Shown here piece after piece: positions 4,264 to 53,583 of a stretch of DNA of 64,000 bases; the stretch's first letter is position 1; the number at the start of each line of letters is the position of its first letter. The stretch is taken from the NCBI GenBank assembly GCA_030649135.1, contig JAUSGI010000004.1, positions 1 to 64,000 on the forward strand, written 5' to 3'. Origin of the DNA: a bacterium. GTDB lineage: Bacteria > Patescibacteriota > Minisyncoccia > Phycocordibacterales > Zambryskibacteraceae. The notes beneath the pieces were generated by a model. That model saw only the letters and a list, made by a program, of their open reading frames with translations, ran no database searches and was not told where the DNA came from. The position numbers and the translations under genes were made by a program.

Positions 4264-4839
4264 ATGGGTTATTTAATTCCAACAGTAATAGAAAAAAGCC
4301 AGTTCGGAGAGCGGGCATATGATATTTACTCGCGCCTTTTGCGTGAAAGAATAGTTTTTCTAGCTGGACCTATCAACGATGAGGTGGCCAACATTGTTAT
4401 TGCCCAACTTCTTTTTCTCCAGTCTGAAGACCCGAAGAAGGACATTTCCCTTTATGTTAATTCTCCCGGAGGTGCTGTCACGGCAGGGCTCGCCATCATT
4501 GATTGCATGAATCATATCAAGCCGAATGTTTCCACTGTTTGTTTAGGACTAGCTGCTTCGATGGGCGCTTGGATTCTTTCTTCCGGGCAAAAGGGTAAAC
4601 GTTTTGCCCTTCCCAATGCAGAAATCATGATCCACCAACCGCTTGGAGGAGTCGAAGGTCAGGCTGCCGATATCGAAATAGCCGCCAAACGCATTATTAA
4701 AAATCGTCAGACGATGAATGAGATTATGGCAAAAAATACTGGTCAGCCATTGGCTAAGGTTGCAAAAGACGTCGACAGGGACTTTTTTATGGACCCTGAA
4801 GAGGCCCAAAAATACGGCATCATAGACAAGATTCTATAA
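4264..4839 (+). CDS. clpP: ATP-dependent Clp protease proteolytic subunit ClpP
   Basis: [15 protein letters not shown]…VNSPGGAV…GLAASMGA…MIHQPLGG, the ClpP Ser/His region. Start at ATG 4264 is preferred over the 4228 ORF start, which runs through the hairpin. Confidence 0.95.
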
Positions 4840-4937
4840 CTGTAGTAGACTTCGGGTGTTCACTTAAAAAATTAATTAAAAAGTTTCGTTTCCCTCCTGC
4901 TTTTACGGTTACGACAGTCTGATTCCCCTCTACGTCT

Positions 4938-6467
4938 ATGTCTCTTAAATTAGCGCTACTTTTAGCATTGCTCGCCGCATCGGCCGGTATCGGCTTCGGT
5001 TATTTGTTGCGCCTCTTAATTTCCCTTGGCAAGAAGGGTTCGATGGAGCTCGACATCAAGCAGATGGAGCTTTCCGCCAAAGAGGAGGCGCAGAGGGTTA
5101 TCTCGGAAGCGGAAACTCAAGCGGCAGAAATTATCCAAAAAACTCAAAAAGAATTTAAAGAACGTGAAGAACGGGTTAAAAAAACCGAAGACCGTCTGGT
5201 GACCAAAGAAGAATTTCTCGACAAACGTCAGCTCGATTTGGATAAGGAGGTGGAGCATGTCAGACAAAAAGTGACGGAAACAGCCTCTCTCCGGGAGGAA
5301 GCGGAGACACTGGTCGAAGCTCGCCAGACGGAGCTTTCTAAGGTAGCCGGGCTGTCTCATGGCGAAGCTAAAAATGAACTCTTGAGAGTCGTAGAAAAGG
5401 ATGCCGAGGAAGATATTCTCATCCGTATGCAAAAACTTGAAATTGAAAGTGGAGAACGTCTCGAAGCGCGCGCCAAGGAAATTCTCTCCACTACGATTCA
5501 GAGATTGGCGGTCTCGACTGCTAGTGCCATGATGGGTACGACGGTTTCTCTGCCGTCGGACGAATTGAAAGGCAAAATTATCGGCAAAGAGGGTAGGAAT
5601 ATTAAAGCATTTGAACGCGCTACCGGGGTGGAGGTGATAGTGGATGATACCCCCAATTCCATTACCCTGTCCTCTTTCGACCCTGTACGCAGGGCAGTAG
5701 CAAAATTGGCGCTGGATAACCTGATTCTCGATGGGCGTATTCAGCCGGCCAAGATTGAAGAATTTGTGGAGCAGGCCACAGCTGAAACAAATAAAATTAT
5801 CAAAGAGAAGGGCGAGCAGGCGGCCATTGAATGCGGAGTCTACAATCTTGATTCGAAACTAGTCTCTCTTTTGGGCCGTCTGTATTTTCGTTCCAGTTAT
5901 GGCCAGAACGTGCTTGACCACTCCATAGAGATGAGCCACTTGGCGGGGATGATTGCCACCGAAGTCGGGGCGGATGTAGCGACGGCGAAAGCCGGAGCTC
6001 TTTTGCACGATATCGGCAAGGCTCTTGACCATGAGGTTTCCGGCACACACGTCGACATAGGCAAGAGGATTTTGGCCAAGTTCAATATCCCCGAGGCCGT
6101 CATTCAAGCAATGCAGTCGCATCACGAGGAGTATCCATACGAAACTATTGAGTCCGTTATAGTTCAGACGGCGGATGCTATTTCTGGAGGAAGACCGGGG
6201 GCCCGCCGAGACACTGCCGAGCGTTATCTTAAGCGTCTTGGAGACCTAGAGGCTATTGCCCTCTCCTTTGATGGGGTGGAGAAGGCTTACGCTCTGGCCG
6301 CCGGCCGTGAAGTTCGTGTTTTCGTACTGCCTGACAAAATTTCTGACCTGGAGGCCAAACAAATGGCTAGAGATATCGCTCTACGTATCGAAAGTGAACT
6401 TAAATATCCCGGTGAGATTAAGGTTAATGTCATCCGCGAGGCCCGTTCTATAGAATTTGCCCGCTAG
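4938..6467 (+). CDS. rny: Ribonuclease Y
   Basis: N-terminal TM helix, coiled coil, KH domain (GKIIGKEGRNIKAFERATGVEVIVDD) and HD domain (HSIEMSHLAGMIA…LLHDIGKA). Confidence 0.95.
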   Translation: MSLKLALLLALLAASAGIGFGYLLRLLISLGKKGSMELDIKQMELSAKEEAQRVISEAETQAAEIIQKTQKEFKEREERVKKTEDRLVTKEEFLDKRQLDLDKEVEHVRQKVTETASLREEAETLVEARQTELSKVAGLSHGEAKNELLRVVEKDAEEDILIRMQKLEIESGERLEARAKEILSTTIQRLAVSTASAMMGTTVSLPSDELKGKIIGKEGRNIKAFERATGVEVIVDDTPNSITLSSFDPVRRAVAKLALDNLILDGRIQPAKIEEFVEQATAETNKIIKEKGEQAAIECGVYNLDSKLVSLLGRLYFRSSYGQNVLDHSIEMSHLAGMIATEVGADVATAKAGALLHDIGKALDHEVSGTHVDIGKRILAKFNIPEAVIQAMQSHHEEYPYETIESVIVQTADAISGGRPGARRDTAERYLKRLGDLEAIALSFDGVEKAYALAAGREVRVFVLPDKISDLEAKQMARDIALRIESELKYPGEIKVNVIREARSIEFAR

Positions 6468-11333: not shown

Positions 11334-11352
11334 ATTAGTGTCCAGCGCTTTG

Positions 11353-11423
11353 TGCCCCCAGCAGGAATCGAACCCACATCACCTGTTCCGAAGACAGGTA
11401 CTTTATCCGTTAAGCTATAGGGG
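11353..11423 (-). tRNA. tRNA-Arg (anticodon TCG)
   Basis: Minus-strand cloverleaf GCCCCTATAGCTTAACGGATAAAGTACCTGTCTTCGGAACAGG…GGTTCGATTCCTGCTGGGGGCA; anticodon loop CTTCGGA. Confidence 0.8.
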
Positions 11424-11440
11424 CCTACCTGCGCAGGCAG
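11422..11440. repeat. GC-rich palindromic motif, family A, copy 2 (abuts the 5' end of tRNA-Arg)
   Basis: gcctacctgcgcaggcagg. Its reverse complement matches 19 of 20 bases with the 44728 copy. Confidence 0.5.
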
Positions 11441-11505
11441 GCAACATCGATATCGTACCTCAAAACTCGATTTTTTTCCTTTAGTACGCTATTATCTTTT
11501 CACTC

Positions 11506-11576
11506 GCGGCTATGGTTTAGTGGTAGAACACGTCCTTGCCAAGGACGAGATTCGGGTTCGATTCCCGGTAGCCGCA
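11506..11576 (+). tRNA. tRNA-Gly (anticodon GCC)
   Basis: GCGGCTATGGTTTAGTGGTAGAACACGTCCTTGCCAAGGACG…GGTTCGATTCCCGGTAGCCGCA; anticodon loop TTGCCAA. Confidence 0.85.
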
Positions 11577-11577
11577 C

Positions 11578-11648
11578 CGGGCTGTAGTACAGCGGTAGTA
11601 TACACGCTTCGGGAGTGTGAGACCCGAGTTCGATTCTCGGCAGCCCGA
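11578..11648 (+). tRNA. tRNA-Pro (anticodon CGG)
   Basis: CGGGCTGTAGTACAGCGGTAGTATACACGCTTCGGGAGTGTG…CCGAGTTCGATTCTCGGCAGCCCGA. Perfect 7-bp acceptor with C1:G72 and A73, which are Pro identity elements; loop TTCGGGA. Confidence 0.8.
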
Positions 11649-11675
11649 TGCCAAGTTTTATTAAGCACATATAGA

Positions 11676-11746
11676 CGGGCCGTCGTATACCGGTAGTATT
11701 TGCGCTTTGGGAGCGTAAGGACTGGGTTCGATTCCCAGCGGCCCGA
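11676..11746 (+). tRNA. tRNA-Pro (anticodon TGG)
   Basis: CGGGCCGTCGTATACCGGTAGTATTTGCGCTTTGGGAGCGTA…CTGGGTTCGATTCCCAGCGGCCCGA; C1:G72; loop TTTGGGA. Confidence 0.8.
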
Positions 11747-11766
11747 TAAGATACAATTAAATATGC

Positions 11767-11837
11767 CGGGCTGTGGTATAACGGTATTACTCATGGCTGG
11801 GGGTCATGCAACCCGGGTTCAACTCCCGGCAGCCCGA
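11767..11837 (+). tRNA. tRNA-Pro (anticodon GGG)
   Basis: CGGGCTGTGGTATAACGGTATTACTCATGGCTGGGGGTCATG…CCGGGTTCAACTCCCGGCAGCCCGA; C1:G72; loop CTGGGGG. Confidence 0.8.
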
Positions 11838-11846
11838 AAGAATAAT

Positions 11847-11917
11847 GCGGGATTAGTTTAATGGTAGAACAATAGATTTCCAATCTGTTGGTGGGAGTTC
11901 GATTCCCCCATCCCGCA
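11847..11917 (+). tRNA. tRNA-Gly (anticodon TCC)
   Basis: GCGGGATTAGTTTAATGGTAGAACAATAGATTTCCAATCTGT…GGGAGTTCGATTCCCCCATCCCGCA; loop TTTCCAA. Confidence 0.85.
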
Positions 11918-11921
11918 CAAA

Positions 11922-27130: not shown

Positions 27131-28885
27131 ATGCATATTGACGAAAATAAGCTTGAGAGTTTTATGATGGACTCGGGTCTGGTCTCTAAGAAGGAGATTG
27201 AGCTCGCTAAAAGTGAAATTAAGGGCAAAGATACGAGTATCGGAGAAGCGTTGGTGAACAAGGGCGCTTTAACCGAAGATGATTTGCGCCGAATGCAGGC
27301 CTATATTCTCGGTATCCCTTTCGTTGACCTGAAGAATCAGAAACTCGATTTCTCCGTGCTCTCTCTTATTCCCGAGCCCATTGCGAGAAATCACAACATT
27401 ATTGCTTTCAGAAAGATTGAGGACAGTCTGGAAGTAGCCATGCTTGATACCGAAGACCTGACGGCCATCGATTTTGTTAAAAAGAAAGTGGGGCTTAAAA
27501 TCTTGCCTCGTCTGACGGATGACGAATCTATGAAGTGGGCATTACTTTCTTACCAGAAGACGCTTAAAGCGGAATTCGGGGACATCATTCAGAAAGAAGC
27601 CAACTCGCTTAGAGCCATGAGCGACAAAATTGGCGGAGAGGATATCACTGAAGGGGACCTAAAAAAACTGGCCGAGGATATACCGGTGGTACGCATTGTC
27701 GACACGCTCTTGAAACACGCTATCATTCAAGATGCTTCCGATATTCATATTGAACCGGAGGAGGATAAGGTGTTGGTGCGCTATCGCATAGACGGCATCT
27801 TGCGCGACGCCATGATTTTGCCGAAGAATACCGCCTCCGGCATCACCGCTCGTATCAAGGTGTTATCCAGTCTAAAGCTCGACGAGAAGCGGGTGCCGCA
27901 GGATGGCCGTTTTAAGATTGATGCCGGAGGCGAGAAGGTTTCTTTCAGAGTTTCCACTCTACCGGTTTATTATGGCGAGAAGACGGTCATGCGTCTTTTG
28001 CGCGAGAGCGTTTCCGGTTTTACTTTAGAGAGTCTCGGGTTTCATGGGCACGGTCTCGATAGTTTGCATAAATCGCTCAAGGCGACTACCGGCATGATTC
28101 TTGCCACCGGTCCGACCGGCTCCGGCAAAACTACTACTCTCTACACCATGCTCGATATTGTTAATACTCCAAACGTTAACATCTCCACCATCGAAGACCC
28201 TGTCGAATATCAGATGATGCGCATCAACCAGACTCAAGTACGTCCGGAAATTGGTCTCACCTTTGCCAACGGCCTGCGCACTCTGGTGCGCCAGGACCCG
28301 GACATTATCATGGTCGGAGAAATCCGCGACAACGAGACGGCGGCGCTGGCTATCAACGCATCACTCACCGGTCACTTGGTGCTCTCGACTCTCCACACCA
28401 ATTCCGCAGCAGGTGCTATCCCGAGGCTCTTAGACATGAAAGTTGAACCATTTCTCCTAGTTTCTACTTTGAATATTGTGATTGCTCAACGTTTGGTCAG
28501 AAAGCTTTCGGCCTCGAAGACCAAGTATTTTCTAAACAAGGGGGAACTAGCCTCGCTTGGCAATGTTATCTCACTTGAGAGAATGCTCGGTCTCCTTAGG
28601 GCCGAGAAGATTATCGGTGAGAAAGACGGTTTCGATAAAATTCCGTTTTGGAAGCCGACTCCCGGCAAAGACAGCGAAGACGGTTATTCAAGTCGTATCG
28701 GTATTCACGAAGTGCTCACGGTGACGCCGACTGTGAAAAACTTGATTATGAAAGGGGCGACGGCAGGGGAGATAGAGGAGCGGGCGACATCGGAGGGCAT
28801 GATGACGATGATTGAAGACGGCATTTTCAAAGCGGCGCAAGGTATTACCACTATAGAAGAGGTCTTAAGAGTGGTGTCGGAATAA
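27131..28885 (+). CDS. pilB: Type IV pilus assembly ATPase PilB / GspE family
   Basis: Walker A GPTGSGKTTTLYTML, Asp box, His box and a GspE N-terminal domain. Confidence 0.9.
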   Translation: MHIDENKLESFMMDSGLVSKKEIELAKSEIKGKDTSIGEALVNKGALTEDDLRRMQAYILGIPFVDLKNQKLDFSVLSLIPEPIARNHNIIAFRKIEDSLEVAMLDTEDLTAIDFVKKKVGLKILPRLTDDESMKWALLSYQKTLKAEFGDIIQKEANSLRAMSDKIGGEDITEGDLKKLAEDIPVVRIVDTLLKHAIIQDASDIHIEPEEDKVLVRYRIDGILRDAMILPKNTASGITARIKVLSSLKLDEKRVPQDGRFKIDAGGEKVSFRVSTLPVYYGEKTVMRLLRESVSGFTLESLGFHGHGLDSLHKSLKATTGMILATGPTGSGKTTTLYTMLDIVNTPNVNISTIEDPVEYQMMRINQTQVRPEIGLTFANGLRTLVRQDPDIIMVGEIRDNETAALAINASLTGHLVLSTLHTNSAAGAIPRLLDMKVEPFLLVSTLNIVIAQRLVRKLSASKTKYFLNKGELASLGNVISLERMLGLLRAEKIIGEKDGFDKIPFWKPTPGKDSEDGYSSRIGIHEVLTVTPTVKNLIMKGATAGEIEERATSEGMMTMIEDGIFKAAQGITTIEEVLRVVSE

Positions 28886-36464: not shown

Positions 36465-38099
36465 ATGCAGCATTTCCCTGAATTATTTGAGACCCTGCTT
36501 AAACAGCGAGGCATCCTACCGGAGGAACAAGAAGATTTTTTGAGTCCTGACTATGAGAAGCTTTATGACCCCTTACTTCTGCCGGATATGCTCAAAGCTC
36601 GTGACAGAGTAATTAAAGCTATTAAGAACAATGAGCATATTGTCATCTTCTCCGACTATGACTGTGACGGCTTGCCGGGCGCGGTGGTATTCTCTGATTT
36701 TTTTGTGAGGATGAATTATGAAAACGTATCATTCTATATTCCACACAGGCATGATGAAGGCTTCGGTCTCAATCTCGGCGCGATAGAAGAAATCGCCGCC
36801 CGTGGCGCCGGACTCATGATTACTATCGATTGCGGTATCGCCAATACGGCGGAAGTGGCGTTCGCCAACGATAAGGGTATTGATGTTATCATCACCGACC
36901 ATCACAAACCGAACCCGACTCTGCCGGCGGCTTATGCTGTCGTCAATCAGAATAGGGAAGATTCAGATTATCCGTTCAAAGGACTCTGCGGCGCAGCCGT
37001 GGCGTTCAAGTTGGTGCAGGCTATAACCGCCCACGAAACTTTCGGCGTGAAGCCGGGTATGGAAAAGTGGTCTCTTGATATGGTGGCCATCGCCACACTC
37101 TCGGATATGGTACCGCTGACGGGTGAGAACAGAATTCTCGCAAGCTTTGGACTTAGTGTCTTGCGCAAATCTCCGCGACCCGGTCTGGCGGCACTTTTCA
37201 AAAGAATGAATCTCGACCAGAGAACTGTTTCGGAGGACGATGTTACATTCATGATTACCCCGCGCATTAATGCCGCCTCGCGCATGGGTATGCCGGAGGA
37301 TGCCTTCAAACTCTTGAAGACCAAAGACCACGAAGAAGCCGAGAGACTGGCTCTTCACCTAGAGAAAATCAACAATGAACGCAAAGGGGTGGTAGCAAGC
37401 GTTGTAAAAGAAGCTAAGTCACATTTAGCAAAACGCGAAGTGATTACCGATGTGATTGTGATCGGTAATCCGGATTGGCGTCCCGCGCTTCTGGGTTTGG
37501 TAGCAAATTCTTTGGTTGAGGAATATGAGAGGCCGGCATTTGTCTGGGGTCGAAGCGGTGACGGAACACTTAAAGGTTCGTGCCGTTCGTACAATGGCCA
37601 TGACCTGTTTGCTCTGATGAGTGTTACTGGTGATGCATTCGTGGAGTTTGGCGGACATGCCGGAGCTGGCGGCTTTTCTGTCACCCTCGAGAGTCTCACT
37701 ACGCTTGAAGAGAGGCTGTCCCAAGCTCTACCCGATTTGGGGGCCGGACTCACAGAGGCAGATGTGCCCGCTCTCCATATAAAATTGGACGATATCGGGG
37801 ACCACCTCTGGAGTCTCGTCTCACGATTTGCGCCGTTCGGCATGGGAAACGAGAAACCTGTTTTTAAAATTCCGCAAGCGGAAATCAAATCGGTAAAAAG
37901 ATTTGGCAAGGAGAATAATCATCTGGAACTTATGTTTAACGGCGGAGTCAAGGCTATTTCTTTTTTCTCCGACCCTGCTTCATACTCCGTCCTCCTTACT
38001 CCCGGCACTCGTATTTCTCTGCTTGCCAATCTAGAAAAATCTTTTTTCCGTAATCGTCCCGAATTGCGCTTGAGGATTGTTGATATCGTAGAATCATGA
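36465..38099 (+). CDS. recJ: Single-stranded-DNA-specific exonuclease RecJ (DHH/DHHA1)
   Basis: DHH motifs (IFSDYDCDGL, ITDHH) and a DHHA1 region (…GGHAGAGG). Confidence 0.9.
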   Translation: MQHFPELFETLLKQRGILPEEQEDFLSPDYEKLYDPLLLPDMLKARDRVIKAIKNNEHIVIFSDYDCDGLPGAVVFSDFFVRMNYENVSFYIPHRHDEGFGLNLGAIEEIAARGAGLMITIDCGIANTAEVAFANDKGIDVIITDHHKPNPTLPAAYAVVNQNREDSDYPFKGLCGAAVAFKLVQAITAHETFGVKPGMEKWSLDMVAIATLSDMVPLTGENRILASFGLSVLRKSPRPGLAALFKRMNLDQRTVSEDDVTFMITPRINAASRMGMPEDAFKLLKTKDHEEAERLALHLEKINNERKGVVASVVKEAKSHLAKREVITDVIVIGNPDWRPALLGLVANSLVEEYERPAFVWGRSGDGTLKGSCRSYNGHDLFALMSVTGDAFVEFGGHAGAGGFSVTLESLTTLEERLSQALPDLGAGLTEADVPALHIKLDDIGDHLWSLVSRFAPFGMGNEKPVFKIPQAEIKSVKRFGKENNHLELMFNGGVKAISFFSDPASYSVLLTPGTRISLLANLEKSFFRNRPELRLRIVDIVES

Positions 38100-47851: not shown

Positions 47852-48265
47852 ATGAGCACCATCAATCAACTCATCAAGCGCAAAAGGAAAAAGATTGCCC
47901 GCAAAACCAAGGCAATTGCTTTGACGCGTGGCTTTAATACCATCAAGAACCGCCCTGTTTTCTACAAATCTCCCTTCAAGCGGGGAGTGGCTACTAAAGT
48001 AACAACCAAGACTCCCAAGAAACCAAACTCCGCCATCAGAAAGATTGCCAGAGTCCGTCTGACCAATGGTATGGAGGTCACCGCCTATATCCCCGGCATC
48101 GGGCACAATTTACAGGAGCACTCGGTGGTTGTGATTCGCGGCGGGCGCGTTAAGGATGTGGGTCTGCGTTACACTATTGTGCGCGGGGTGCTTGACGCCA
48201 CTGGAGTTGAGAACAGGAAGCAGACCCGAAGTCAGTACGGAGTCAAAAAACCTAAAAATAAATGA
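47852..48265 (+). CDS. rpsL: Ribosomal protein S12
   Basis: [14 protein letters not shown]…[10 protein letters not shown]…; full-length S12. Confidence 0.95.
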
Positions 48266-48807: not shown

Positions 48808-50976
48808 ATGGAACGAGACTATCCTTTAGAACGCGTCAGAAATTTTGGAATAATTGCGCATATTGACGCTGGTAAGACCACCACTTCCGAACGAGTACTT
48901 TTTTATACCGGTTCACAGCACGATATTGGCGAAGTGCATGAGGGAGATACCACTACCGACTGGATGGAACAAGAACGCGAACGCGGTATCACTATCACTG
49001 CCGCTGCCATTACCTGTTTCTGGGCGCCGACTTATCTAACCGAAGCTGAAAGACTGAAAAAAGAAAATAAGTTTCGTTTCAATATTATCGATACCCCCGG
49101 CCACATCGACTTTACCGTGGAAGTGAAGCGCTCGCTTAGGGTGCTTGACGGCGCGGTGGTCGTTTTCGACGGGGTGGCCGGTGTGGAACCGCAGTCCGAG
49201 ACCAACTGGCGTTATGCCGAAGAAGCTCTGGTACCTCGTATTTGCTTCGTCAATAAACTGGACCGCACCGGCGCATCCTTCGAGCGCTCATACAAATCAA
49301 TTCTTGACCGGCTTTCCAAAAAAGCGGTGCGCATGCAGATTCCGATAGGGGAAGAAGCCAAACACGAGGGTGTAATAGATTTGCTCAAAATGAAAGCTTA
49401 TTATTTCGAAGGTAATATGGGCAACTTGGTGATTGAGAAAGAAATTCCGGAAAATCTGCGTGCCGATGCGGAAAAGTATCGTGCCGAATTGGTGGAAAAG
49501 GTGGCGGAGAGTGATGAAGTGCTTATGAACATGTATCTCGAAGGCAAAGAGAAAGAGATTAGTCTTGATGCTCTTAAAGCGACCCTTCGTAAAGCGGTTA
49601 TCGCCAATAAAATTTTCCCGGTCTTTGCCGGCTCGGCTCTCAAGAATAAAGGCGTCCAGCTTGTACTTGATTCGGTGGTAGATTTCCTGCCTTCTCCTCT
49701 CGACATTCCTAGCATTCGCGGTATTGACCCTCGCACCGGAGAGGAAGTAGAGCGCCATGCATCGGATAGTGAACCATTCTCGGCCTTGGCATTCAAACTC
49801 CAGTCCGACCCGTTCGTTGGTCAACTGACTTTCTTCCGCGTCTATTCCGGCACGATTGAATCCGGCACTTATTTGCATAATTCAACCACTGGCGAGAACG
49901 AGCGACTCGGCCGCATCGTACGTCTGCAGGCTAATCAGCGGGAGGAGGTTAAAAAAGTTTTTGCCGGAGAAATTGCCGCCGCTGTTGGTCTAAAGAATGC
50001 CAAGACTTCGCATACTTTCTCAGACGAAGCTCACCCCATTATTCTCGGAGAGATTTCATTCCCGGAACCGGTCATCTCTCTGCGCATCGAACCGAAGACT
50101 AAGGCTGACCAAGAGAAAATGGGTATGGCTCTCAAGCGATTATCCGATGAGGACCCGACTTTCAAAATTAAATCGGACCAGGAGACCGGCGAGACGGTCA
50201 TCATGGGTATGGGCGAACTTCATCTCGAAATTATTGTGGACCGTATGAAGCGGGAATTTTCCGTTGAAGCTAATGTTGGCAAACCACAAGTGGCGTACAA
50301 AGAGACCATTACAGGCGAAGCGGAGGTGGAAAATAAATATATCAAGCAAACCGGAGGTAAGGGTCAGTACGGACACGTCAAAATTAAGATTAAGCCTCTG
50401 CCTAAATATGACCCTGAAGAAAAAGTGCCGAAGAATGCTTCTCGCGAGCCCGGATTCGAATTTATTAATGCTATTAAAGGAGGTGTCATCCCGCAGGAAT
50501 TTATTCCAGCTGTGGAGAAAGGTATTAGAGAAGCTATGGACAGAGGTATCGTGGCTGGCTATAAGATGACGGATATTTCGGCCGAACTTAATTACGGTTC
50601 TTACCACGACGTTGACTCTTCAGAAATTGCCTACAAAATTGCGGCCTCGCAGGCTTTCCAAGAAGCGGCAAGGAAAGCCAAACCGGTGCTCCTCGAACCT
50701 ATTATGAAAGTAGAAGTAGTAATGCCGGAGAAGTTTATGGGCGATATCACCGGTAATCTCTCTGGCAAGCGGGCCCAAATCGAAGCTATGGAAGATAGGG
50801 GAGAACTCAAAGTAGTCCGGGCCAAAGTGCCTCTCTCCGAAATGTTCGGTTATGTCACCTCGCTTCGCTCTATGACCGAAGGCCGCGGTTCCTCGACTAT
50901 GGAATTCGACCACTATGCCATCGTGCCGACAAACGTTGCTCTAACTATCATCGAAGCGAGAACAGGCGGGAAATAG
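48808..50976 (+). CDS. fusA: Elongation factor G
   Basis: GIIAHIDAGKTTTSERVLFYTG… G domain and all five EF-G domains. Confidence 0.97.
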   Translation: MERDYPLERVRNFGIIAHIDAGKTTTSERVLFYTGSQHDIGEVHEGDTTTDWMEQERERGITITAAAITCFWAPTYLTEAERLKKENKFRFNIIDTPGHIDFTVEVKRSLRVLDGAVVVFDGVAGVEPQSETNWRYAEEALVPRICFVNKLDRTGASFERSYKSILDRLSKKAVRMQIPIGEEAKHEGVIDLLKMKAYYFEGNMGNLVIEKEIPENLRADAEKYRAELVEKVAESDEVLMNMYLEGKEKEISLDALKATLRKAVIANKIFPVFAGSALKNKGVQLVLDSVVDFLPSPLDIPSIRGIDPRTGEEVERHASDSEPFSALAFKLQSDPFVGQLTFFRVYSGTIESGTYLHNSTTGENERLGRIVRLQANQREEVKKVFAGEIAAAVGLKNAKTSHTFSDEAHPIILGEISFPEPVISLRIEPKTKADQEKMGMALKRLSDEDPTFKIKSDQETGETVIMGMGELHLEIIVDRMKREFSVEANVGKPQVAYKETITGEAEVENKYIKQTGGKGQYGHVKIKIKPLPKYDPEEKVPKNASREPGFEFINAIKGGVIPQEFIPAVEKGIREAMDRGIVAGYKMTDISAELNYGSYHDVDSSEIAYKIAASQAFQEAARKAKPVLLEPIMKVEVVMPEKFMGDITGNLSGKRAQIEAMEDRGELKVVRAKVPLSEMFGYVTSLRSMTEGRGSSTMEFDHYAIVPTNVALTIIEARTGGK

Positions 50977-51070
50977 CTTTTAATACGGAAAATTTGACAT
51001 TGTGATTAGTTTGTGACAGAGTGAAAGTAGACGTACGGCCCTGCGGGCCAAATTCAAGGAGGACACTATC

Positions 51071-51337
51071 ATGTTGCGTTGGGGTGCTATGCTCTTCATC
51101 GGCGTGCTGATCTTTCTGTGCGGGGTGTTTGTGTCAGACAGGTGGGTGGTCGTCGGTAAGGCAGAGGCCATATCATCCGGCCGTCCACACTGTCAGGCGT
51201 ACATGGACCACGCCGTTCGGGCGGTCCAGGAAAGTGAGCATCAGTATGGAGCGCCGAACTACGCGAAAGCAGTAGCATCGACGGCCTGGAGTGCCATCTA
51301 CCGTAACTGCATGGGGGGGGCCCTACTAGTCCGGTAA
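51071..51337 (+). CDS. GC-rich small membrane protein (cassette between fusA and tuf)
   Basis: SD CAAGGAGG before the ATG; TM helix MLFIGVLIFLCGVFV; a terminator follows. GC is much higher than in fusA or tuf (by eye). Confidence 0.45.
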   Translation: MLRWGAMLFIGVLIFLCGVFVSDRWVVVGKAEAISSGRPHCQAYMDHAVRAVQESEHQYGAPNYAKAVASTAWSAIYRNCMGGALLVR

Positions 51338-51375
51338 GGGACTTCCAATGCGCTAATCTTTTTTCATGTTCGCCG

Positions 51376-51409
51376 CCGGTCTGCTTACCCAGACCGGCTT
51401 TATTATTTC
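51376..51409 (+). terminator. Intrinsic terminator (ccggtctg-cttaccc-agaccgg plus ctttattatttc)
   Basis: Stem plus T-tract after the 51071 ORF. Confidence 0.65.
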
Positions 51410-51442
51410 TTACTTTGAAGATTGCACATTCAGAATTTTCGG

Positions 51443-51471
51443 TTGACGAATTTTATATTAAGTCTTATAAT
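51443..51471 (+). promoter_or_regulatory. Consensus sigma70-type promoter TTGACG-17-TATAAT for the 51522 ORF
   Basis: TTGACGaattttatattaagtctTATAAT. Confidence 0.6.
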
Positions 51472-51521
51472 ATAGGAAGGAACGAACACGAGTTAACCCT
51501 CTATCCATAAAGGGGGAAGAG

Positions 51522-51803
51522 ATGAAAAAGGTTATCGTCCTCTTACTGCTTCTCGGCACCGATTACTGGATTGACCAAGACAACCGAATCATCTTCGGCA
51601 GGACGCCGAAGATCGTGAACGAGATTTGCTTCATGAGGGGAGGGGCGTTTTTCGGAAAAAACGGCAGAAGGCTCGTCTGGGCCGACGGCTGTCATGACCC
51701 GTGGGACGATGTAATGATTCTCCCGCTCGAGGCCCGGAGCCCCGAGCACTACATTCACAGGCACGAACTCAAGCACCGTCTCGACGGTGCTTGGCATGAC
51801 TGA
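51522..51803 (+). CDS. GC-rich small secreted protein (second cassette between fusA and tuf)
   Basis: SD AAAGGGGGAAG before the ATG; signal peptide MKKVIVLLLLLG; a terminator follows. Confidence 0.45.
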   Translation: MKKVIVLLLLLGTDYWIDQDNRIIFGRTPKIVNEICFMRGGAFFGKNGRRLVWADGCHDPWDDVMILPLEARSPEHYIHRHELKHRLDGAWHD

Positions 51804-51820
51804 CAATGAGGGAGCTGGAC

Positions 51821-51850
51821 CCCCGGCACGCACGCGTGCCGGGGTTTTCG
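51821..51850 (+). terminator. Intrinsic terminator (ccccggcacgc…gcgtgccgggg plus ttttcg)
   Basis: GC stem plus a short T-tract after the 51522 ORF. Confidence 0.55.
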
Positions 51851-51991
51851 CTGGATTGACTATTTCTGCCCTTTTGTATACCATAGCCCTTACGCGTTAA
51901 CGTTTGTTGGTACTTTGATATTTTCTTCATAGACCATATAGCGGTTTAGTGCGTTAAAACATTAATATCTATTCAATAATAATTTACTAAT

Positions 51992-53185
51992 ATGGCAGCA
52001 GAATTTGATCGCTCCAAACCGCACATCAACGTAGGCACCATCGGCCACGTTGACCACGGCAAGACCACTCTTACCGCGGCTATTCTTAATGTGCTTCACC
52101 GCGCAGGCAAGAATGCCACGATTAAGAGCGTTGACCAAATCGATAACTCTCCGGAAGAAAAAGCTCGGGGCATTACCATCGCCCTTTCCCACTCGGAATA
52201 CGAGACCGACTTGCGCCACTACGCACACGTTGATGCTCCCGGCCACGCGGACTACATAAAGAACATGATTACCGGTGCCGCCCAAATGGACGGAGCTATT
52301 CTCGTGGTTGCCGCTACCGATGGTGTGATGCCTCAGACTCGCGAACACATTCTGCTTGCCAAACAGGTTGGAGTGCCGAAGATTGTAGTTTTCCTCAACA
52401 AGTGCGACATGGTTCCCGACAAGGAACTCATTGCTCTAGTCGAAGAAGAAGTTCGCGACCTCTTGAAGAAATATGACTATGACGGTGCCAATGCGCCGAT
52501 TATCCAAGGTTCGGCCCTTAAAGCTCTGGAAGCCACCGGTATTGACGACGAATGGTCAAAGAAAATCTTGGAACTTACAGATGCTCTCGACACCTATTTC
52601 CCAATTCCGGTGCGCGAAACCGACAAGCCATTCCTCATGCCTATTGAAGACATCTTCTCCATTGAAGGCCGCGGCACGGTTGTGACCGGTCGTATCGAGC
52701 GAGGCAAGGTGAAAGTGGGTGAAGAAGTCGAAATTGTGGGTATCAAGGATACTGCCAAAACTACGGTGACGGGTATCGAGATGTTTAACAAGTCTCTCCA
52801 AGAGGGTCTGGCTGGAGATAATGCCGGCGTTCTCTTGCGAGGTGTGAAGAAGGAAGATTTGCACCGAGGACAAGTCTTGTCCAAACCTGGTTCCGTTACC
52901 CCTCATACCAACTTTACTGCCGAGGTCTACATTCTGAAAAAGGAAGAAGGTGGTCGACACACGCCATTCTTTACCGGCTACAAACCGCAGTTCTACATTC
53001 GTACTACTGACGTAACCGGAGAAGTTACTTTGGCTGAAGGTGTAGAGATGGTTATGCCCGGAGATACCGCCACCTTTACGGTTAAGCTGGTTGCGCCTGT
53101 CGCTCTCGAAAATGAACAGCGCTTTGCCATCCGCGAAGGTGGTAAGACTGTCGGAGCCGGCGTGGTTACCAAAGTCATCGCGTAA
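51992..53185 (+). CDS. tuf: Elongation factor Tu
   Basis: [14 protein letters not shown]…[20 protein letters not shown]…NKCD…; full-length EF-Tu. Confidence 0.97.
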
Positions 53186-53190
53186 ATTAC

Positions 53191-53583
53191 GTGCCCAAAA
53201 AAGTACCTCTAAAACCAAAAAGGGTTCTTAAACCTAAAGTTCCTAAGGCTCCCAAAGTTCCCAAAGCGGAAGAAGTAACCTCGCGTCTGCGTATCCGAGT
53301 GATGGCTTATGAGTCCAAGCTTTTGGACCTCTCGGTCAAACAAATCATAGACACAGCACTCCGTTATGACGCCAAGGTGCAAGGTCCGATTCCTCTGCCA
53401 ACGGGAATCAAGAAATACACGGTTAATCGTGCCGCATTTATCTACAAAAATGCGCGTGAGCAGTTCGAGATGCGGATTCACAAGCGGTTAATCGATATTC
53501 TGAATCCCACTCCCAAGATTATCGAGTCGCTCACCAACTTGAGTTTGCCGAGTGGGGTCAACATTGATGTCAAGCTCATATGA
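53191..53583 (+). CDS. rpsJ: Ribosomal protein S10 with Lys/Pro-rich N-terminal extension
   Basis: …RLRIRVMAYESKLLDLSVKQIIDTA… S10 core preceded by a KPKxPK-rich tail. Confidence 0.9.
   Translation: MPKKVPLKPKRVLKPKVPKAPKVPKAEEVTSRLRIRVMAYESKLLDLSVKQIIDTALRYDAKVQGPIPLPTGIKKYTVNRAAFIYKNAREQFEMRIHKRLIDILNPTPKIIESLTNLSLPSGVNIDVKLI

Follow-up and report, generated by a model that had tools for sequence, protein, structure and literature searches.

Two small gene cassettes, probably acquired independently by horizontal transfer, occupy a hypervariable fusA–tuf junction in a groundwater Patescibacterium

Why do two short, GC-rich open reading frames (ORFs) stand between fusA and tuf in a Patescibacterium, and how did they come to be there? 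The question is raised by a 64,000-nt stretch of DNA (hereafter the window; positions 1 to 64,000 of the forward strand of contig JAUSGI010000004.1, assembly GCA_030649135.1), which derives from a Paceibacteria-like Patescibacteria metagenome-assembled genome (MAG) from groundwater and in which the gene order is rpsL-rpsG-fusA, a gap, and then tuf-rpsJ-rplC onward. The gap, bounded by fusA (48808–50976, + strand; elongation factor EF-G, 722 aa) and tuf (51992–53185, + strand; EF-Tu, 397 aa), measures 1,015 bp and contains the 88-aa ORF-A and the 93-aa ORF-B, both on the + strand, in agreement with an earlier note made from the sequence. The segment from 50977 to 51850 (∼875 bp) is probably a lineage-specific insert consisting of two independent, horizontally acquired mini-cassettes at a hypervariable site; each cassette would be a single-gene unit in which a sigma-70-like promoter and a strong Shine-Dalgarno (SD) site precede a small ORF, its product hydrophobic near the N terminus, and an intrinsic terminator follows. 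The arrangement itself is real, because a Logan contig from a separate assembly (L001, 1,078 bp) bridges the whole region, from the fusA 3′ end through both ORFs to the tuf promoter, at 100% identity; this contig and the MAG possibly share one read set, so it speaks more against a mistake in binning than against assembly artefacts of every sort.

The spacer was compared with those of ten close relatives, namely the closest species representative in GTDB (L061; EF-G 91% and EF-Tu 96% identical) and nine metagenome loci (L088–L096; EF-G 91–97% identical) that were recovered by using the conserved tuf leader as a DNA pattern; the best fusA matches were MAGs of Kaiserbacteria, Nomurabacteria, and Paceibacterota. 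Both flanking genes are conserved in this set, with amino acid identities of 91–97% for fusA, the left flank, and 94–97% for tuf. The spacers differ in length and content. Two are empty sites of 141 bp (L088 and L089), which read TAG-G-TTGACTAT, so that the stop codon of fusA borders on the tuf promoter; the others hold a 52-aa ORF (432 bp; L061 and L096), a 132-aa Cys-rich ORF (683 bp; L091), a 131-aa membrane protein (about 700 bp; L090), two 73-aa ORFs (991 bp; L092 and L094), a 110-aa ORF with a HicA toxin (1,010 bp; L093; PF07927, E = 1.6e-11; phrog_353), or a 73-aa ORF with a 133-aa anchored protein (1,132 bp; L095). The gap of L093 (locus positions 4642–5654, − strand) is low in GC and host-like in composition. 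The comparison with sister genomes that the earlier note had proposed found no relative with the same ORFs, ORF-A and ORF-B being present in none of the ten. Within one tight cluster, in which the flanks share 91–94% nucleotide identity, two sites are empty (L088 and L089), one carries 73- and 73-aa ORFs (L094), and one carries 73- and 133-aa ORFs (L095); turnover at the site is fast, because members this close differ in content.

The right border of the variable segment is sharp and is formed by a conserved block in front of tuf (51853–51991, + strand), comprising a promoter (TTGACT-17-TACCAT, 51856–51884) and a leader of ∼110 nt. A TTGACT-17-TAnnAT promoter with such a leader stands directly before tuf in each of the ten close relatives, the two empty-site loci among them; in L061 it reads TTGACT-17-TATAAC. 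By blastn, the block of the window is 79–94% identical to those of eight of the nine metagenome loci, L061 and L096 are recognisably homologous, and identity among the relatives themselves reaches 95–96%. Its identity to six relatives is 91–94%, compared with 83–88% for fusA and tuf coding DNA where measured, and the promoter-leader is thus more conserved than its coding flanks. Upstream of the block, the DNA is unrelated between most relatives. RNAalifold returned a weak hairpin with zero covarying pairs for the leader, and neither the leader nor the rest of the fusA–tuf region matched Rfam. The tuf promoter is independent of the insert in the window, because the empty-site relatives have it too. 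The earlier note had argued that the terminators of the insert, if functional, would uncouple tuf from the str operon promoter. Given two strong predicted terminators upstream, tuf in the window does most likely depend on its own promoter, and the two cassettes would insulate it from str-operon read-through without disturbing that promoter; the insert, however, is not the cause of this independence, the promoter being present in all ten relatives.

Variability at this junction extends well beyond the close relatives. In 48 wider Paceibacteria loci the fusA–tuf gap ranged from ∼110 to >4,800 bp, at odds with the premise that the two genes are normally adjacent, and in ∼30 further loci tuf was not found downstream within the ≤6 kb covered (some contigs being shorter). 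Cargo in the wider loci included RelB/YafQ (twice), ParE/Phd, HepT with a nucleotidyltransferase, peptidoglycan-binding proteins, an S8 peptidase, and nucleotide-metabolism genes, among others. On the evidence of these sequences, the fusA–tuf junction is a long-standing variable site in this class. The gap of Nomurabacteria GW2011_GWA2_40_9 (L027, 6470–9787) holds about nine tandem ORFs of 76–101 aa, a RelB/YafQ pair among them, and looks like a toxin-antitoxin (TA) mini-island; the same RelB/YafQ pair occurs in a second locus (L003, 7284–7826). Some long fusA matches were considered as possible inteins, and this was ruled out, as they were cross-matches between the G domains of fusA and tuf.

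The composition and translation signals of the two ORFs both point to a foreign origin. ORF-A and ORF-B have GC contents of 59% and 55%, respectively, against 46.8% for the window, and GC contents at third codon positions (GC3) of 0.69 and 0.73, against a mean of 0.47 for 26 host genes (sd 0.073, range 0.34–0.64), which bears out the description of them as GC-rich and atypical. An SD-like 5-mer core at −20 to −4 precedes both inserted ORFs but only two of 52 host ORFs (≥150 aa, with the first ATG taken as the start codon). None of rpsL, rpsG, fusA, tuf, rpsJ, rplC, rplD, and rplW has an SD site; host starts without one include those at 47852, 48262, 48808, 51992, 53191, and 53580. Among the cassette ORFs of relatives, seven of ten have GGAG or GAGG cores ahead of them. 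These SD-bearing foreign genes contrast sharply with their host, which is essentially SD-less.

Cassette 1 extends from ∼50990 to 51408. It opens with a 27-nt promoter-like piece (TTGACA-17-CAGAGT, 50990–51016, + strand) that is 89% identical to gap positions 408–434 of L095, where the homologous sequence reads TTGACA-17-TAAGAT and stands ahead of a different ORF; the −10 element is weak in the window copy, and a consensus promoter scan, which found six promoter-like sites in the region against 1.9 expected, did not report this piece. ORF-A (51071–51337, + strand) follows, with an AAGGAGG SD whose end lies 8 nt from the ATG. Scored with host codon usage, its frame ranked first of six (−0.02, the other five reaching −0.37 at best), and it is a probable gene. 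The product is predicted to carry an N-terminal membrane anchor (residues 4–22; Kyte-Doolittle peak of 3.0 over 15 residues) and, in a weak single-sequence AlphaFold2 (AF2) model (pLDDT 69.5), is all helical, with a predicted hairpin bearing its two cysteines, C41 and C80. ORF-A is an orphan: protein searches returned self-matches only, tblastn against phage and plasmid collections gave no match, and Pfam, NCBIfam, PADLOC, and PHROGs were all empty. The cassette ends in terminator T1 (51375–51408, + strand; hairpin 51375–51398), which was found by both scan and folding and has a 9-bp stem, GCCGGTCTG/CAGACCGGC, followed by TTTATTATTT; its folding energy (−17.9 kcal/mol) lies far below that of shuffled sequences (z = −4.85). 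A 5-bp GC hairpin upstream of ORF-A, to which the earlier note had also drawn attention, folds like shuffled sequences (z = −0.11), has no U-tract after it, and is at chance level. As there is no terminator between fusA and ORF-A, transcripts of the str operon may extend into the latter.

The flanks of cassette 1 recur around other cargo. All 28 of 28 nt of T1 are the same in L095, where they follow the unrelated 133-aa ORF of that locus's second cassette, and in L091 a T1-related stem lies behind yet another ORF. ORF-A and the 133-aa ORF show no significant similarity despite their common flanks (E = 8.9). T1 and the promoter piece had no further copies in the window or in the other loci and are not dispersed repeats. 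Since the flanks of cassette 1 occur in L095 without ORF-B, the two cassettes represent separate acquisitions.

Cassette 2 extends from ∼51415 to 51850, between T1 and the −35 box of tuf, a position at which L095, L091, and L094 run directly into the tuf promoter. The promoter that had been called textbook is indeed near consensus (TTGACG-17-TATAAT, 51443–51471, + strand; 11 of 12 positions), and the claim that each ORF has its own SD and terminator held up as well. ORF-B (51522–51803, + strand; annotated by NCBI as hypothetical protein Q7R69_00745) begins 184 bp after the end of ORF-A and has AAGGGGGAAGAG as its SD. It is followed by terminator T2 (51821–51850, + strand; hairpin 51821–51844), a perfect 11-bp inverted repeat, CCCCGGCACGC/GCGTGCCGGGG, of which the terminator scan counts 10 pairs, and then TTTTCG (−25.2 kcal/mol; z = −3.6 against shuffles). 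A second perfect 11-bp inverted repeat (51770–51793; CAAGCACCGTC/GACGGTGCTTG) lies within the 3′-terminal part of ORF-B, where the conserved KHRLDGAW motif is encoded. On the opposite strand, a 113-aa ORF (51543–51884, − strand) overlaps ORF-B and has a host-codon score of 0.17, on par with that of ORF-B; it had no homologs in the loci examined, and GC-rich coding DNA probably gave rise to it incidentally. A search of the borders for target-site duplications and inverted repeats yielded only short, imperfect repeats of doubtful meaning.

ORF-B, unlike ORF-A, belongs to a family, so the homolog search suggested in the earlier note succeeded for one of the two peptides. Searched exhaustively with phmmer, 1.84 billion cluster representatives gave 11 further matches at E ≤ 0.001, ten of which are small proteins (92–174 aa, 35–51% identity, best E = 5.6e-14), and a profile search added four members; with about 15 remote homologs in an overall scope of ∼15 billion proteins, the family is very rare. 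The remaining phmmer match (P0011, 1,181 aa, repetitive) is probably spurious and was excluded from the family alignments, and a hit from a viral-contig scan with P0013 (L087) was spurious as well, lying inside an 815-aa gene on the reverse strand. The family is absent from the models of Pfam, NCBIfam, and PHROGs, PADLOC was empty for ORF-B, a k-mer protein search returned self-matches only, and tblastn with ORF-B and two homologs against phage and plasmid collections gave no match. In the family alignment C36, C57, H81, E82, and H85 are invariant (the last three counted over 15 sequences), and G89 and H92 are nearly so. That remote homologs, to E = 5.6e-14, keep the two cysteines and the HExxH motif establishes ORF-B as a real gene. 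Twelve of the 14 homologs have a lipobox, L-x-[GA]-C, ending a lipoprotein signal; ORF-B reads MKKVIVLLLLLG-T-DYW and has lost the lipobox cysteine and a linker of 5–8 residues while keeping a short signal-like hydrophobic segment. Its description as secreted is accordingly plausible from the homologs and unproven for the window copy.

The AF2 model of ORF-B (pLDDT 86.7, pTM 0.75) shows a small beta-sheet, a helix (residues 29–38) bearing C36, and a second helix (77–88) bearing HExxH. The motif reads HELKHRLDGAWH, with one residue more before the glycine than the metzincin HExxHxxGxxH, although four homologs have the exact spacing (P0007, P0009, P0012, and P0014); P0006 lacks the third histidine. 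Family proteins end 0–2 residues past this putative third histidine, so the Met-turn and C-terminal subdomain are absent. Fold searches returned nothing significant; among the weak matches zincins were recurrent (IrrE/PprI, projannalysin, proabylysin, selecase, PPEP-2, collagenases, BepA, ADAM-8, ArdC, and SprT). ORF-B is an established member of no peptidase family, and a zinc-peptidase-like function is at this point a lead only. We tentatively suggest, as possible but doubtful, a zincin-like mini-protein that binds zinc outside the cytoplasm and targets a component of the envelope; it would then act on the cell envelope in the manner of phage “moron” lipoproteins.

Such a comparison is consistent with where the homologs were found. 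Of five contexts examined, four are phage-like, on contigs of 61–68% GC: in one the neighbours of the homolog are a methyltransferase and a head-tail connector of T7 type (PF12236, E = 8e-34), in another it adjoins a phage DNA polymerase (phrog_17), in a third phrog_9027, and the fourth contig, 30.5 kb long, consists of small genes packed tightly together and includes a transglycosylase that matches families of phage endolysins and internal virion proteins. The fifth contig (L097, 1,044 bp, 53% GC) was uninformative. The position of the homolog within the phage-like contigs is not conserved, as expected of an accessory “moron” gene.

Two bolder proposals, which we consider unlikely, can be built on these data. 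The first is that the ORF-B family represents a new minimal zinc metallopeptidase fold, in which case phages would carry a metzincin-like HExxHxxGxxH protein as a lipoprotein accessory gene and the Patescibacterium would have captured a copy; at ∼75–80 residues past the hydrophobic segment, ORF-B would, if a peptidase, be smaller than any metallopeptidase known to us. The second is that the fusA–tuf junction is a recombinase-independent “expression slot,” in which interchangeable ORFs for small surface proteins would be framed by the conserved promoter piece and by a terminator that does not vary, beside tuf, which ranks among the most conserved genes of the cell.

We favor the interpretation of the segment as two independently acquired cassettes, whose turnover may proceed by DNA uptake and homologous recombination in the conserved flanks. 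This route is suggested by genes in the window for a DNA-uptake and recombination toolkit, namely a ComEC (PF03772, 38502–39980), RecJ (36465–38096), and a PilB-like ATPase of type IV pilus or type II secretion systems (27131–28882). Patescibacteria are reported to have competence and recombination genes, and the same report lists tuf and rpsL among genes called horizontally acquired (PMC12455944). Several points weigh against the favored interpretation. Expression of the cassettes is predicted from sequence signals; recombination in the flanks is proposed for a set of single, divergent genomes; and the phage origin is based on four short or partial contigs. ORF-A, with its degenerate −10 element and no homolog, could be a chance or decaying ORF, the loss of the ORF-B lipobox could reflect relaxed selection, and in a codon test the frame of ORF-B (0.106) scored below the antisense frame (0.134), so that the choice between these two frames is decided by homology only.

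Some of these points also feed the best-surviving alternative, that the insert is decaying junk, the remnant of old insertions whose ORFs have ceased to be expressed or functional. It would account for the orphan status and weak −10 element of ORF-A and for the missing lipobox of ORF-B, and GC-rich DNA does yield long chance ORFs, as the 113-aa antisense ORF illustrates. However, ORF-B retains all invariant family residues in an intact frame with a near-consensus promoter, an SD, and a strong terminator, the frame of ORF-A is the best scoring of six, and the fast turnover of the site suggests that dead inserts would be removed quickly; decay is thus improbable as an explanation of the segment.

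The earlier note had suggested a search for toxin/immunity-like small proteins, and the corresponding explanation is that ORF-A and ORF-B form a functional pair, either toxin and immunity protein or secreted protease and membrane inhibitor, acquired as one module. The two are neighbours in the same orientation, each has a hydrophobic stretch near its N terminus and a foreign composition, TA modules recur at this site in relatives, and a phage-derived metzincin paired with a TIMP-like lipoprotein is reported from Listeria (PMC8235301). Against this, each ORF has its own promoter and terminator across the 184 bp between them, the flanks of cassette 1 are found in L095 without ORF-B, the neighbours of the examined ORF-B homologs show no similarity to ORF-A, and Pfam, NCBIfam, PADLOC, and PHROGs had no match for either ORF, so the pair explanation falls well short and is highly improbable. 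Least probable of all, and very unlikely indeed, is delivery by a dedicated site-specific system, integron-like or MITE-like (miniature inverted-repeat transposable element): all insertions lie after the stop codon of fusA and before the −35 box of tuf, different ORFs are surrounded by a conserved terminator and promoter piece, and an imperfect 15-nt direct repeat (12/15) brackets cassette 2 (51396–51410 and 51853–51867). However, short sequences present in two copies often match by chance, neither T1 nor the promoter piece has further copies in the window or in other loci, the cassettes have their own promoters and no attC-like repeat in common, and there is no transposase or integrase near the site, the only recombinase in the window being the C-terminal part of a tyrosine recombinase, truncated where the window begins, ∼50 kb away (19–375).

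The genomes of Patescibacteria are tiny and streamlined, the organisms live attached to other cells, and the gain and loss of their surface and defence genes are poorly known. With the two-cassette interpretation, this locus shows a rapid turnover of accessory mini-genes within the ribosomal-protein supercluster, among them TA modules and small envelope proteins of phage type, and it reveals small HExxH proteins on phage-like contigs that form a family not catalogued before. The conserved flanks could serve as anchors for PCR or read recruitment, making the junction a marker of strain-level gene flux in metagenomes. Elsewhere in the window, rpsJ (S10; 53191–53583) starts with GTG 6 nt past the tuf stop and encodes a Lys/Pro-rich N-terminal extension of ∼27 aa ahead of the conserved S10 core, and six tRNA genes are clustered at 11352–11918, Arg-TCG on the − strand followed by Gly-GCC, Pro-CGG, Pro-TGG, Pro-GGG, and Gly-TCC on the + strand.

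Among known systems, integron cassettes, promoterless ORFs with an attC site beside intI, do not fit for the reasons given above, and neither does a type II TA or toxin-immunity pair, as ORF-A and ORF-B are separate units without a toxin or antitoxin domain, although HicA occupies the same site in L093. With minimal zincins (the minigluzincins projannalysin, proabylysin, and selecase, and IrrE/PprI and SprT-like proteins), ORF-B has in common a small alpha/beta domain in which the HExxH helix follows a beta-sheet, the predicted helix 77–88 corresponding to the active-site helix; measured against zincins and metzincins at large, it lacks the Met-turn and the C-terminal subdomain below the metal site. 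Phages encode morons and small lipoproteins such as Llp of T5, Cor, and Ltp of TP-J34. The ORF-B homologs resemble these in being small, mostly lipobox-bearing, and scattered in position on phage-like contigs, and ORF-B itself has the moron layout of a predicted promoter and terminator of its own; however, neither sequence nor, so far as detectable, fold relates it to Llp, Cor, or Ltp, these three lack the HExxH...G..H motif of the ORF-B family, and the window copy is chromosomal, with no prophage around it and no lipobox cysteine. The E. coli-type str operon is rpsL-rpsG-fusA-tufA. Its basic picture is unchanged by the cassettes, since the window retains the rpsL-rpsG-fusA-tuf order followed by the S10 operon; what differs is a dedicated, conserved promoter and leader for tuf and the intervention of two terminators and two foreign genes. 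The insert is ultimately of a known kind, a small flexible genomic islet of self-contained foreign mini-genes between core genes. Islets of this type, known too as replacement hotspots, are kept up by homologous recombination of the DNA on either side. Unlike described islets, it lies inside the str/S10 supercluster directly before tuf and is built of tiny single-gene units of 0.3–0.5 kb, each with its own promoter, SD, and terminator, and the recombination tracts here are putative. Like them, it has sharp borders between two conserved genes, cargo that is different or absent in close relatives and that includes TA modules and small membrane or secreted proteins, and a host equipped with genes for competence and recombination.

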